Positions 5,285-52,573 of a stretch of DNA of 64,000 nt are shown here, piece by piece. The stretch covers positions 64,001 to 128,000 of the IMG/VR virus record IMGVR_UViG_3300033463_000013. One strand, given 5' to 3'. Each line of letters opens with the position of its first letter. The first letter of the stretch is position 1. A program made the translations under genes and the position numbers. The notes under the pieces are model-generated. The model was not told the origin of the DNA. It was given only the letters and a program-made list of their open reading frames with translations, and did no database searches. Origin of the DNA: a virus. Lineage: Duplodnaviria > Caudoviricetes.

Positions 5285-5467
5285 TTACGACTCCTCCCAC
5301 TCTTTCCAACTGGGGAAGAACATTGCGAAGTCATCGCAATCTTTCACCGGGTCATCAATATGACAGATGCCATCTTTGGCATAGGGACAATCGTTTTCAT
5401 TCCAACAATTAACGGCGCAGTAAGTGGGCTCTCCGTTGTAAGTTCCTTCTGTTGCATTACGCGCCAT
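5285..5467 (-). CDS. Cys-rich small early protein, 60 aa
   Basis: AAGGAGG RBS supports the start at 5467 (MARNATEG); five Cys residues. Confidence 0.7.
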   Translation of the reverse strand: MARNATEGTYNGEPTYCAVNCWNENDCPYAKDGICHIDDPVKDCDDFAMFFPSWKEWEES

Positions 5468-5681: not shown

Positions 5682-5807
5682 TGTTCTTACTCCCTTTCTG
5701 CCCTATCGGCAAGTATAATTATACTCATTTTGGGATAGGTTGCAAGGAGTAAATTTAGGTCTCGACACCTAAATTTAGGAAATGAAATAAGGCCCGGTTT
5801 CGGGCCT

Positions 5808-6065
5808 TCAACAGATAAGTTCATAAGTAAAAGTCTGTTTCAGTTTCAAATCATCATCATCAATAAATTCATTCTGATCAATGCGTTTGGCACCACGATC
5901 GATCATCCGCTCCATGAAATCAAGCACTTCTTCCACAGTATGCAGTTCTTCAGTTTCCAAATGAAACCATGCACCATAGTCATGGAGCCGCTGGATGCGA
6001 GCAGTATTGTCAGGGAGTTTCACCGTGAAGCGGATGGTGGTTTTTTCGATTCCGTAGGTTTTCAT
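5808..6065 (-). CDS. Early hypothetical protein, 85 aa
   Basis: ORF with RBS, own promoter and a downstream hairpin. Confidence 0.75.
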   Translation of the reverse strand: MKTYGIEKTTIRFTVKLPDNTARIQRLHDYGAWFHLETEELHTVEEVLDFMERMIDRGAKRIDQNEFIDDDDLKLKQTFTYELIC

Positions 6066-49097: not shown

Positions 49098-49474
49098 TCT
49101 TGTATAAAATCTTCAATTAGTATTATTTTTGATGGCGCGATTTCAATATTTTCTAAATCTTCTAATGGAATCGGCTCGGCATCAATACTAACTACAGTAT
49201 TTAATAATGAAGCAATTTCTTCATTAAATTCATTTACTTTTGTAGGTAGGATTTTATAACTATTATTTTCTATTATTGGATTATCATTTTCATCTTTTTC
49301 AGAATAAGTATTAATTAATTTTGTACGTCCTTCATTAAATAATGACAGCTCTTCTTCAACTTTTTTTAATAGTTTAGCTACATGATAAGCCGTTCTACCT
49401 TTAATGGGACTATCTGATAATTCTTTTAACACATCTATACTATTGATAATGGTTAATAATTTAACTTCAATCAT
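49094..49474 (-). CDS. Conserved phage hypothetical protein (DUF1617-like)
   Basis: ORF of 126 aa, coupled to the upstream gene by TAATG; no TAG. Confidence 0.7.
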   Translation of the reverse strand: MIEVKLLTIINSIDVLKELSDSPIKGRTAYHVAKLLKKVEEELSLFNEGRTKLINTYSEKDENDNPIIENNSYKILPTKVNEFNEEIASLLNTVVSIDAEPIPLEDLENIEIAPSKIILIEDFIQE

Positions 49475-50226
49475 TATATATCTTCACCCCATGTGGCTTT
49501 ATTTGCTTTAATTTTGCCGCAAAAATATTTTCCAATACAAATTGCATCTGACTCATCTTCAGTGCAATCCATATCATACCAAACTTTTACTTTAGCTTGC
49601 GCCTATTTTTTTTGAGCATCGCGGTGCTAATCTCCACCTGCAATACCACAATATGCTCTCCATTCTTTTGAATACACTAATTCGTGTTCTATACCAGCTT
49701 CATATACTACATCTAGTATCACTCCCTATAAATTTGCGAGTGTCTAAAATGTTTTAACCTAAACATCTGTAGCTTTCTCGCCGTATTTCTATAATTGAAT
49801 ATTCTCAATTCCAACGAAGTCTGGTTCCCATTCTTTTAATGCAGCTTTAAGCCAATTTTTTACTTGATTAATACGATCGGTCGCTGGTAAGGAGGAATTT
49901 GTTTTAAAAATTCCATATCCGACCAGTACTTTATTATCATATATTGCATAGCCTGTGATGCCTGTTGCGGCATCTAAGGCTAGAATACGCTATGTATCTG
50001 TACCCTTTTTGGGTACTTTATTTTTTTTGACTTTATATGGATCTCCGGCCATACAAATATCACAAATTTTATGTTTACGCCACTAATCGAATGTCTATTC
50101 CTATTTATGCCCCGCTGGACAAATTATTTCAATCGGAGTTTTAAGATTCTTATAAACTTCGCTTACTAATTTCCATCCTTCCGCTTCCAAGGCATTTTTT
50201 ACAACATAAACATTAATTGTACTCAT
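49474..50226 (-). CDS. ruvC: RuvC-like Holliday junction resolvase with N-terminal Zn finger, 250 aa (10 TAG=Gln), absent from the ORF track
   Basis: RILALDAATGITGYAI, VGIENIQ, LANL(TAG)GVI and DESDAICIG motifs; CPAGH...CDIC at the N-terminus. Confidence 0.87.
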
Positions 50227-51023
50227 TATTTATCAGTACTTCCGAAACCGCCTTCACCGCGATCGGAGTCAACTAAAATATCAACTACTTTAGCTTGGAA
50301 GCGATAGCTTGGCATTACTAGTAGTTGTGCAATACGATCACCGGCATGAATTTGATAATCTTCATCAGAAGTATTATCATAAATAACTCCTAATTCACCA
50401 CGATAACCGCTGTCAATAAGTCCAACACTATTGCTTAAACGTAATGGAGTTTTTAGTCCAATACTAGAACGAGGAAGAATAAAAGCTAGCCATCCTTCCG
50501 GCAATTGAATTTTAACTCCAGTTTTTATCATATTGCTATAAGAATGTGCTGGAATAGTTTGATCTTCTTTTGCGTATATATCCGCCGCAGCGTCCGTCTC
50601 ATGCGCATATGATGGGACTTGTGCGCCAATATTAAGTGTTAGCGGTAAAACAATATTATAACTATGATATTTTTCTACCGCGGTGTCAATAACTTTTAAC
50701 ATTGAATCCATAATACCGTCAATTAGAATCTTCTTATTACCTGTATATGGTTCATCAGTATAAATAGATTCATTTAAAACATTTTTTAATGTATTTGCTG
50801 AATTAATAACTTCTTGCTTAGTTAATCCTTGCTGTTCAAAGCCATTAATTAATTGTGTTACAGATTGATTAATCATTGCTGGAGAAAAACTTTGCTTAAA
50901 CTGTGCTTGTACTAATGTCATTACATCATCAGTTAAAGTATCTTCATCTAATTCTGCCATTTCTTTAATCGCATCTATAATACTACCCAATTCAGTTCCT
51001 TCAAATTCATTCATTTTATTCAC
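50226..51023 (-). CDS. dut: Trimeric dUTPase with an N-terminal extension of about 120 aa
   Basis: AADI, PRSS, GLIDSGYRGE, GDRIAQ and RGEGGFGST motifs. Confidence 0.93.
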   Translation of the reverse strand: MNKMNEFEGTELGSIIDAIKEMAELDEDTLTDDVMTLVQAQFKQSFSPAMINQSVTQLINGFEQQGLTKQEVINSANTLKNVLNESIYTDEPYTGNKKILIDGIMDSMLKVIDTAVEKYHSYNIVLPLTLNIGAQVPSYAHETDAAADIYAKEDQTIPAHSYSNMIKTGVKIQLPEGWLAFILPRSSIGLKTPLRLSNSVGLIDSGYRGELGVIYDNTSDEDYQIHAGDRIAQLLVMPSYRFQAKVVDILVDSDRGEGGFGSTDK

Positions 51024-51026
51024 CTC

Positions 51027-51233
51027 TTACTCAAAAGTCTTTTCAATGGTAACCTTATATTCAATATATAAGATTTCACCTTTTGACTTCTTTGGTTTAG
51101 CAGTATAACCAGATTTAGTTACTGTATAGCCTTCTGATACTGCTTTTTCCTTTGCTTCTTCAATCATATCCATGGCTTCTTCTTCACTATCAGTTAGCCA
51201 TACATCAGTTTTCTTCAGTAGTTGTCTCGGCAT
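51027..51233 (-). CDS. Hypothetical protein, 68 aa
   Basis: ORF within the operon, with RBS. Confidence 0.72.
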   Translation of the reverse strand: MPRQLLKKTDVWLTDSEEEAMDMIEEAKEKAVSEGYTVTKSGYTAKPKKSKGEILYIEYKVTIEKTFE

Positions 51234-51627
51234 TTTCTTCTTTCTCCTTATTTAATTTTCTTAATTTTTGAATTAAATCTATATAATTAAGTTTTTTTGC
51301 TGTTTCACTCACTGCGCCAATTACATCTCCGCTATCGGCTACCATTTCAGCATACTTCTTCGCGCCAACTTTCTTTTTAAGTGCGCGCCTTTGCGCTCGA
51401 TTCATTGGCACTCGAGTACTATTGATTTTCTCAATAGTTTTGTCTTGAATCTTTTTAAGAACTTCCTCAGGAGTATTCGCACCAATCTGCTCACGCGCTT
51501 CTTCTGTAGTAATATTCTGAATTTGAGCAAATCGCTCAATAAGTTCATCTACTGTTAAGTCTGCTTTTTCCTCTTCGGGAAAAGCATCATCAATTGGGTC
51601 CATCTTTGCTCTTAAACCTCTTTCCAT
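51205..51627 (-). CDS. Hypothetical protein (NRAQRR motif)
   Basis: GGAGG RBS supports the start at 51627. Confidence 0.72.
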   Translation of the reverse strand: MERGLRAKMDPIDDAFPEEEKADLTVDELIERFAQIQNITTEEAREQIGANTPEEVLKKIQDKTIEKINSTRVPMNRAQRRALKKKVGAKKYAEMVADSGDVIGAVSETAKKLNYIDLIQKLRKLNKEKEENAETTTEEN

Positions 51628-51628
51628 A

Positions 51629-52573
51629 TTATCCTCCACCACCAGAATTCTTATTATAGCCAAATTCCTATGTCTTAAAGAACTCTATGTAGTATTTTTC
51701 AAGTTCATTTAATTTATCTTTATCAGCATAGGTGATAACTTCAATCGTCCAATTCCAAAATCCTTCTTTTAGTATTGCATGATGTACAGCTTGATCTGCA
51801 ATTGACTTTATTCCAATTGCGCTTTTAAAGTGGTCTGCTATACGCTTCTTAACATCTGTACTTTTCCCAATATAAGCCATTCCATTTTCTAGACTTGTAA
51901 GTTTATATATTCCTGGCTCAGTTTTAATTTCAATCCGCTTGAAGGTATCCTCTATATTGGGTTTAACATATTCTGACCAAACTAATTTACTTATTATATC
52001 TGGATGTTGTACTTTCGCCGCGACAGTAGTAAGTAAGAACTCAATATCATCTTGATATTCTTCAGGTAACTAAATAGTATAGAATAAACGTTCTTGCTTT
52101 TCTTTTTCATACTGTTTAATTGGTTCAAGTAAACTTTCATACTTCTATTTTTCTTGATTTACTTTATTCCAATATTGAGCCGCTTCATATTCTGTTTCTG
52201 CTTTAGTATTTTTTAATATCTCATCTAAACGTGAAATTTCATTATCAACGTCTTTCTATTTAGATTCAATTATTCTATTTAGATCTTCTTGACGATTTTT
52301 CCGCTATCTTTCCATGGAAGCGTCTATTTCTTTAAGTCTATTATCGGTTATATCTTGATATACATCTAATGCTGCTTGTAAGTCCTTACGACATTCTTCA
52401 AGCTTATATTTTTCGTAATCAATCTATTCATCTAATACTTGTTTTTCTGCTTTGGTATCAATTAATTGATTACGATATTTATCAAGTTCAGTTCTATCAA
52501 TTTTCTATTTTTGATAAAGTTTATATCCTAAAAATATTATTATAATAAGGCATCCGATTATAGCATATATCAT
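51629..52573 (-). CDS. Membrane-anchored coiled-coil GIY-YIG nuclease, 314 aa (7 TAG=Gln)
   Basis: N-terminal TM helix (MIYAIIGCLIIIIFLGY), coiled coil, GIYKLTSLENGMAYIGKS, LNELEKYYI and FGYN; only TAG interruptions. Confidence 0.85.

Follow-up and report, generated by a model that had tools for sequence, protein, structure and literature searches.

Introduction

In Streptomyces, a single tRNA that becomes effective late, the tRNA-Leu(UAA) encoded by bldA, gates a scattered set of genes through their rare TTA codons. In phages, recoding of a stop codon has been proposed as a gate on late and lytic genes by Borges et al. (bioRxiv 10.1101/2021.08.26.457843; Nat Microbiol 2022), who called the use of the alternative code in the replication machinery "variable" and found a group I intron endonuclease, lying inside an early gene of Agate phages, among the three families most enriched in TGA, an enzyme that they read as delayed until late. 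In phage T4, hairpins at ribosome-binding sites keep GIY-YIG and HNH endonucleases on early and middle polycistronic mRNAs untranslated until late (Edgell, Gibb and Belfort 2010, PMC2988022), and endonuclease VII (gene 49) is likewise held back according to Barth et al. 1988, as cited in PMC2988022. Two reports on crAss-like phages (Mgcod, bioRxiv 10.1101/2022.06.29.495998; Yutin 2021, PMC7886860) describe dual coding in large blocks of one code or the other. Here, we analyze a window of 64,000 nucleotides, bases 64001 to 128000 of the 181,407-bp genome of the phage in IMG/VR record IMGVR_UViG_3300033463_000013 (window coordinates carry the prefix W), which contains a six-gene operon in which only the genes for a RuvC-like Holliday junction resolvase and a GIY-YIG nuclease have in-frame TAG codons.

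Results

In-frame TAG codons set two nucleases apart from their operon partners

A first-pass annotation of this DNA had claimed that recoding works as a per-gene safety catch on translation, so that DNA-cutting enzymes on a shared mRNA are made only after a code switch. Its TAG counts, the six-gene operon and the promoter at its head were all reproduced (Table 1), and we found 17 TAG and 17 CAA or CAG codons in the two nucleases compared to 0 and 22 in the four partners (Fisher p=4e-5). When the flanking replication genes are counted with the partners, the latter figures become 0 and 139 (p=2e-14), and the claim that dnaE, nrdD, nrdG and recJ lack TAG over some 2,800 codons proved exact, with none in the 2857 codons of DnaE, NrdD, NrdG and RecJ. 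Numbered from the ATG, the in-frame TAG codons of the GIY-YIG gene are codons 23, 50, 90, 106, 143, 168 and 302, and those of the RuvC gene are codons 42, 44, 48, 79, 146, 156, 161, 167, 200 and 208.

Two explanations that had been named as fatal to the proposed catch were rejected. The TAG-free genes are rich in out-of-frame TAG trinucleotides, and thus the purge of TAG acts on codons; together with the G+C content at third codon positions (GC3), which is 0.25 in RuvC, 0.18 in the dUTPase gene and 0.24 in nrdD and so no different in RuvC than in its neighbors, this argues against regional mutation bias or AT drift as the source of the contrast. Low expression does not suffice as the only cause of TAG density, since dozens of minor replication genes have 0 TAG among hundreds of glutamine (Gln) codons.

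For comparison, we fetched 23 related loci using RuvC (64 to 85% identity) and ranked 48 conserved families in this phage and seven further complete recoded genomes (G002, G004 and G006 to G010; with this phage, the 8 recoded genomes), to which we added a complete standard-code sister genome, G001. The genes of the operon are tightly joined: the ATG of the 140-amino-acid gene lies 1 nt past the GIY-YIG stop codon, behind GGAGG, and TAATG start/stop overlaps connect the dUTPase gene to RuvC, which has a weak Shine-Dalgarno sequence of its own, and RuvC to the DUF1617-like gene, whose product matches PHROG 1401 (E=3.9e-22). These junctions leave no room for internal promoters, and no conserved internal promoter was found in the related loci, all 22 of the 22 relatives that cover the region having a near-consensus sigma-70 promoter upstream of the GIY-YIG gene. 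We found no terminator between the upstream nrdD-nrdG-FNT unit and the operon; at the other end, a bidirectional terminator separates the operon from a convergent tail-fibre gene.

The GIY-YIG start, an ATG with a GGTG Shine-Dalgarno sequence, is conserved. A local hairpin at its leader (-13.3 kcal/mol, z=-2.7) is not, with 0 consensus pairs among 14 relatives, and folding at the RuvC start gave z=-1.6; a conserved hairpin at the ribosome-binding site as a delay device was therefore rejected for the GIY-YIG leader and the RuvC start alike. The operon promoter is one of 62 near-consensus sigma-70 sites in the genome (no more than 1 mismatch). Of these, 58 lie on the minus strand and 55 are intergenic, and between genome positions 43 and 73 kb they are packed very densely, upstream of tiny genes.

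TAG is read as glutamine

The phage genome has a short terminal repeat, 36% G+C and 30 tRNA genes. Frames fragmented by TAG merge into long genes once only TAA and TGA are taken as stops, and 94 of the 151 called genes contain no TAG, the TAG shares per family being bimodal. Among 24 orthologues of each protein, columns 144, 146, 156, 167 and 210 of the RuvC alignment and columns 94, 158, 193 and 265 of the GIY-YIG alignment hold Gln or TAG exclusively, and because so many columns do so, we assign TAG to Gln in this phage (genetic code 15) on the strength of the alignments.

A tRNA(CTA) was found by ARAGORN and Rfam, with a weak first acceptor pair (1-72) and the discriminator G73; the G002 copy opens with TGGGGTA, which we take to be tRNA-Gln-like. 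Homologues were found in G002, G004, G006, G007 and G009, and the tRNA is absent from the standard-code G001. ARAGORN detected no tRNA(CTA) in G008 and G010 although their genes are TAG-rich, both IMG/VR records being marked "linear" and lacking end repeats. At 91 to 98 nt, this suppressor tRNA carries an unusually long variable arm resembling that of a class II tRNA, yet TAG is Gln by the alignments; the columns of those alignments and the Gln-like features of the acceptor end ruled out Ser, Leu or Tyr, readings that the arm had prompted. This phage, G002 and G004 share an identical anticodon stem-loop, a weak or mismatched first acceptor pair and, again, the discriminator G73. The distant code-15 phage phAss-1 has two tRNA-Sup-CTA genes, of 72 and 88 nt.

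Upstream of the suppressor tRNA, a cow-rumen-4 RNA sits between a sigma-70-like promoter and a 114-amino-acid TAG-free open reading frame, after which the tRNA follows directly (Table 1). Possibly this RNA serves as a leader through which the code-switch tRNA is controlled. In G002 and G004, no cow-rumen-4 RNA was found beside the tRNA(CTA), and a ROOL RNA is the neighbor there. Both genomes share ROOL with this phage, and G004 additionally encodes a transfer-messenger RNA. The Rfam matches to cow-rumen-3, cow-rumen-4 and ROOL place the phage in the rumen, and a Firmicute is the probable host, given that the hosts of its nearest relatives in GenBank are Enterococcus, Enterocloster, Bacillus and Lactococcus.

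Both nucleases retain their catalytic residues

The RuvC-like protein matches Pfam PF02075 with 26.9 bits (cut-off, 22.2) and PHROG 827, annotated as Holliday junction resolvase, with E=1.7e-21. Its tetrad D85, E141, D224 and D227 is invariant among 14 orthologues and aligns with D7, E66, D138 and D141 of Escherichia coli RuvC, whose structure 1HJR is matched by the profile across the whole domain (E=0.006); phmmer with the single sequence found nothing in the PDB, the match being obtained by profile search alone. The protein also bears a conserved N-terminal CHCC zinc ribbon. From these sequence features we assign it as a RuvC-type resolvase and predict junction-specific cleavage.

The GIY-YIG protein matches Pfam PF01541 with 36.4 bits (cut-off, 22.6) and consists of an N-terminal membrane helix, a coiled coil of about 140 residues and a C-terminal GIY-YIG domain. 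In the AlphaFold model, a single helix at residues 2 to 162, corresponding to the hydrophobic N terminus and the coiled coil, is followed by a helical linker and a GIY-YIG fold at residues 221 to 300, which Foldseek matches to I-TevI and UvrC with target-normalised TM-scores of 0.64 to 0.70. Residues Y223, Y234, R244, H248, E292 and N307 are invariant among 30 homologues. The family comprises more than 1000 metagenomic proteins, and the match in the protein Atlas reads only "viral GIY-YIG."

Code state is inherited by gene family

The same operon is present in all 23 RuvC-related loci, and the contrast in per-gene TAG share that had been put forward for checking across related recoded phages holds in these loci and in the 8 recoded genomes (Table 1). 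In the 8 genomes, the dUTPase count of TAG is 1/83. A second region, fetched as 33 loci using the metallophosphoesterase gene, also shows bimodal TAG shares, its recoded families including three of unknown function besides that of the 965-amino-acid protein; the bimodality in both regions indicates that code state is a heritable trait of each gene family, not of strand, block or operon. What stands of the per-gene catch is therefore that TAG status is set gene by gene inside one transcription unit and is conserved in the 23 loci and the 8 genomes.

RuvC has the highest pooled TAG share among the 48 families of the 8 genomes, with 65 TAG and 44 CAA or CAG codons (0.60). It ranks first in 4 of the 8 and exceeds the genome baseline in 7 of the 8 (Wilcoxon p=0.008), and 65/109 compared to a neutral share of 0.44 gives a binomial p=7e-4, both p-values being optimistic because the genomes share ancestry. 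The GIY-YIG share of 0.37 falls within the late-gene baseline of 0.29 to 0.49 in the same genomes. The catch had been claimed for both nucleases, and an excess over the neutral or late baseline is thus seen for RuvC alone.

Table 1. Features of the operon, its surroundings and the genome, with TAG use in related loci. Positions with the prefix W are window coordinates, and the others are genome coordinates unless another genome is named. TAG use is the pooled TAG share of Gln codons or, where two integers are given, TAG versus CAA+CAG.
Feature	Position	Strand	Length (amino acids)	In-frame TAG	TAG use (loci)	Remark
sigma-70 promoter, extended -10 (TTGACA-17-TGnTATAAT)	W52632-52604	minus				12/12 consensus match; heads operon
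GIY-YIG nuclease	W51629-52573	minus	314	7	0.41 (23)	Pfam PF01541
hypothetical protein	W51205-51627	minus	140	0	0.10 (23)	no family found
hypothetical acidic protein	W51027-51233	minus	68	0	0.00; 0 TAG vs 37 CAA/CAG (23)	
dUTPase with N-terminal extension	W50226-51014	minus	262	0	0.01; 3 TAG vs 228 CAA/CAG (23)	Pfam PF00692, E=8.5e-26
RuvC-like Holliday junction resolvase	W49474-50226	minus	250	10	0.44 (23)	Pfam PF02075
DUF1617-like protein	W49094-49474	minus	126	0	0.04; 3 TAG vs 75 CAA/CAG (23)	Pfam PF07761, 21.8 bits, just below cut-off 22
bidirectional intrinsic terminator	W49065-49088	both				10-bp stem, 6 GC pairs, T-runs on either strand
nrdD-nrdG-FNT unit	W52629-55970	minus		0		upstream context
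nrdD					0.02 (23)	
nrdG					0.05 (23)	
FNT					0.04 (23)	
tail fibre					0.50 (23)	
metallophosphoesterase					0/205 (33)	
RNase H					0/236 (33)	
DNA ligase					0/191 (33)	
RNA ligase					0/127 (33)	
unknown protein	151686-154583	minus	965	23	0.35 (33)	
coiled-coil protein					0.36 (33)	
Dam methylase					0.34 (33)	
186-amino-acid protein			186		0.32 (33)	
PIN-PhoH					0.17 (33)	
222-amino-acid protein			222		0.16 (33)	
major capsid protein	W19104-20210	plus		0		
major tail protein	W24061-25119	plus		0		
sigma-factor-like gene	W11585-12907	plus		9		PHROG 5767
sigma-70 promoter of sigma-factor-like gene	W11545-11574					perfect match
tRNA(CTA)	5318-5410	minus				ARAGORN and Rfam
tRNA(CTA) homologue in G002	G002:150928-151018					
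tRNA(CTA) homologue in G004	G004:165322-165419					
sigma-70-like promoter before cow-rumen-4 RNA	5886-5858					
cow-rumen-4 RNA	5788-5855	minus				RF02948, 68 bits
cow-rumen-3 RNA	1062-1157	minus				RF03083
ROOL RNA	166758-167347	minus				RF03087, 277 bits

Abundant virion proteins also avoid TAG

The major capsid and major tail proteins have TAG counts of 0/110 and 1/69, respectively, in the 8 recoded genomes, and their neighbors, including portal and terminase, are recoded. In this phage both genes are completely TAG-free within a TAG-rich late block. Since these late bulk proteins avoid TAG, TAG must cost yield even after the switch. Two constraints purge TAG, translation before or without suppression and bulk synthesis, and neither applies to RuvC or GIY-YIG.

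The structural block opens with a sigma-factor-like gene that encodes a C-terminal zinc-finger or endonuclease-VII-like motif and is preceded by a perfect sigma-70 promoter. A late sigma factor may itself need the code switch for its translation, and the 9 TAG codons of this gene hint that code state lies upstream of late transcription. Inspection by eye showed no late-promoter motif shared by the sequences upstream of TAG-rich genes, several of which come after terminators rather than promoters. One such gene, for the 965-amino-acid protein, lies after a terminator-like hairpin and downstream of a TAG-free metallophosphoesterase gene. Its product matched no Pfam, PHROG or PADLOC family and shows no N-terminal P-loop motif, and a role as the SbcC partner of the adjacent metallophosphoesterase was rejected on these grounds.

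A proposed suppressor-gated nuclease pair in an otherwise standard-code operon

We propose that RuvC and GIY-YIG are recoded genes gated by tRNA(CTA) inside an otherwise standard-code operon, for late and sparing synthesis, a reading that we hold to be probable, with some reserve. Genes of the phage would fall into two codon classes. Class S (standard-code-safe) would be strictly TAG-free and include replication and nucleotide-metabolism genes as well as the most abundant virion proteins, and in class R (recoded) TAG would stand near its mutation-only level, about 40% of Gln codons. The class R families span shares of 0.16 to 0.60 in the 8 recoded genomes. RuvC and the membrane-anchored GIY-YIG protein would then be class R genes enclosed by class S genes in an operon with translational coupling and a single sigma-70 promoter.

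Since TAG status is set per gene, is conserved and is not explained by AT drift or low expression, full-length RuvC and GIY-YIG must depend on the suppressor tRNA. Without efficient decoding by tRNA(CTA), translation of RuvC would end at codon 42 and that of GIY-YIG at codon 23, giving inert stubs, and the dUTPase on the shared mRNA would be made from the start. With s as the efficiency of read-through, the full-length yield would be s^n, n being 10 for RuvC and 7 for GIY-YIG, so that the output of both nucleases would depend steeply on how much suppressor tRNA there is relative to release factor 1 (RF1); they would appear late and remain scarce as the tRNA accumulates against host RF1. Suppression would have to rise during infection, and a delay or dose limit would be useful especially for RuvC, in that DNA needs debranching by RuvC before packaging and overproduced resolvases are toxic. 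Near-consensus sigma-70 promoters precede TAG-free and TAG-rich genes alike, including the tRNA(CTA) unit, and transcription alone therefore seems a poor timer.

A stronger form of this proposal holds that the TAG codons are positively selected in RuvC and tolerated in GIY-YIG, acting as a multiplicative, switch-like lock that times and doses by codon meaning; we put it forward only tentatively and regard it as doubtful. If it were true, the lock would time and dose the most dangerous DNA-cutting enzyme gene by gene within a single mRNA, and it would be a functional replacement for the logic of ribosome-binding-site hairpins and late promoters in T4, in a phage with nearly all genes behind host-type sigma-70 promoters.

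Several observations weigh against the proposed gate, above all as a device for nucleases. Nucleases as a group do not follow it: RecJ, RNase H, two metallophosphoesterases, an HNH protein and a GmrSD_N-like protein, all of which cut or trim nucleic acids, are TAG-free, and the same replication block holds TAG-rich genes for Dam methylase, PIN-PhoH and unknown proteins, including that of 965 amino acids. Close relatives interchange TAG and CAA or CAG freely at conserved Gln columns, and the nuclease TAG share is slightly under the tail-fibre share in 15 loci. The first-pass annotation was right that the first TAG codons of both nucleases precede the catalytic domain, but their position is no earlier than in a random deal of TAG among the Gln codons. 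A temporal switch in TAG decoding is an assumption of the model; no gene for a release factor or other code-change factor was found in the genome, and the suppressor tRNA is preceded by a sigma-70-like promoter, as are many class S genes.

Relatives bear on the proposed gate in the same direction. The sister phage G001 (IMGVR_UViG_3300031994_000013), which has essentially no in-frame TAG, keeps the order nrdD-nrdG-GIY-YIG-dUTPase-RuvC with TAG-free nucleases. In a low-TAG relative that also keeps the operon, L008 (IMGVR_UViG_3300033463_000072), RuvC contains no TAG, and its CAG count is raised. The lock can therefore be dispensed with. In phAss-1, a RuvC-like gene beside nrdD-nrdG is TAG-free and the adjoining RecJ homologue is interrupted by TAG codons. 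With RuvC recoded here and RecJ recoded in phAss-1, a recoded nuclease island recurs in the replication block, and the recoded enzyme differs by lineage.

Further features of these relatives were noted. Neither of the recoded genomes G002 and G004 is as close to this phage as G001, a placement that suggests loss of recoding or its repeated gain. L008 appears to be intermediate, with a tail-fibre TAG share of 0.18. In phAss-1, a look-alike of the 68-amino-acid acidic protein adjoins the RuvC-like gene, which is annotated as hypothetical in GenBank, and the GenBank annotation (OQ749652.1:52717-63196) splits the RecJ homologue at its TAG codons into three "hypothetical proteins."

Alternative explanations

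The TAG codons could be a neutral by-product: if the nucleases are not needed before suppression, selection would not remove TAG from their genes and AT-biased change of CAG to TAG would run to equilibrium, leaving a lock that has no selected function. We consider this possible, if on the unlikely side. From 4-fold sites, a CAA/CAG/TAG mix of 0.45/0.09/0.45 is predicted if TAG is a free synonym, and the TAG-rich genes of this genome have 0.51/0.08/0.41, so close to the prediction that most recoded genes are at mutational equilibrium. The baseline share of GIY-YIG, the interchange of codons at conserved Gln columns, the random position of the first TAG and the RuvC genes without TAG in G001 and L008 all fit this explanation as well. 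The excess of TAG in RuvC over the neutral share, and its top rank in half of the recoded genomes, speak against it. A neutral origin would still imply dependence on the suppressor and would differ from the gating that we propose on adaptiveness only.

It is rather unlikely, in our judgment, that the TAG codons limit dose instead of setting time, with suppression incomplete throughout and the codons keeping the enzymes scarce on an mRNA from a very strong promoter that is shared with a dUTPase that is needed in bulk. The avoidance of TAG by the late, abundant capsid and tail proteins, the variable shares of class R genes, the coupling of the weakly primed RuvC start to the dUTPase gene and the ordinary sigma-70-like promoter of the suppressor tRNA are all consistent with a dose limiter. 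Such a limiter is not exclusive of a timer, however, and RecJ, the ligases and RNase H would tolerate a cut in dose, yet they have almost no TAG; for these minor replication proteins, translation before or without suppression must therefore also be required.

It is very improbable that the nucleases are mobile or recently acquired genes that imported their codon usage from another recoded phage. PHROG and PADLOC do label the GIY-YIG domain "homing endonuclease," but both genes are syntenic in 23 of 23 loci, in G002 and G004 (37 to 49% identity) and in G001, the GIY-YIG protein has its membrane helix and coiled coil in place of a DNA-binding tail, and the GC3 of RuvC equals that of its neighbors. 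Being syntenic in every relative examined and without such a tail, the GIY-YIG protein is not a typical mobile homing endonuclease. That the TAG codons mark decayed pseudogenes or assembly errors has a negligible probability, since nothing beyond the stops under translation table 11 points to it and the frames are otherwise open, the catalytic residues are invariant, TAG aligns with Gln and the pattern recurs in dozens of independent assemblies.

Discussion

This operon offers a natural internal control for the hypothesis that recoding is a translational timer: genes with 7 and 10 TAG codons and genes with none are served by a single promoter, with start and stop codons that overlap. Dozens of genomes preserve the arrangement, and a sister phage that uses the standard code is available for comparison. 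Annotation by "code blocks" would mis-call mixed operons of this kind.

The finding is a clean, conserved example of an idea that has been published, not a new mechanism. The first-pass annotation had read the operon as extending the idea of recoded late and lysis genes to nucleases in replication operons, and for that extension the recoded intron endonuclease of Borges et al. is a precedent. New here are the alternation from gene to gene in a single coupled operon, the top rank of RuvC among the recoded families of a clade and the standard-code sister with the same operon. As in the phages of Borges et al., there is a phage tRNA(CTA), TAG is Gln, early genes use the standard code and the recoded genes would be incomplete before suppression. 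Unlike the intron passenger, the recoded genes here, the resolvase and the membrane-anchored GIY-YIG gene, are core, syntenic and free-standing, and they alternate with TAG-free genes inside a single operon with translational coupling. RuvC, and not a lysis gene, is also the family most enriched in TAG in the clade, and the major capsid and major tail proteins are TAG-free.

The likeness to T4 lies in the same kinds of genes sharing transcripts with early genes. In T4, the hairpins that sequester ribosome-binding sites are relieved by a late promoter, whereas here the block would act at elongation or termination through the meaning of a codon. As in crAss-like phages, some of the genome can be read in the standard code and some requires TAG to be Gln, but in contrast to the large blocks described for those phages, the code state here flips four times in a stretch of 3.5 kb, even where start and stop codons overlap. 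As with bldA, one tRNA would gate a scattered set of genes through a codon inside them; bldA acts through a sense codon in cellular development, and the phage tRNA would act through a stop codon that the virus has reassigned, in competition with a release factor.

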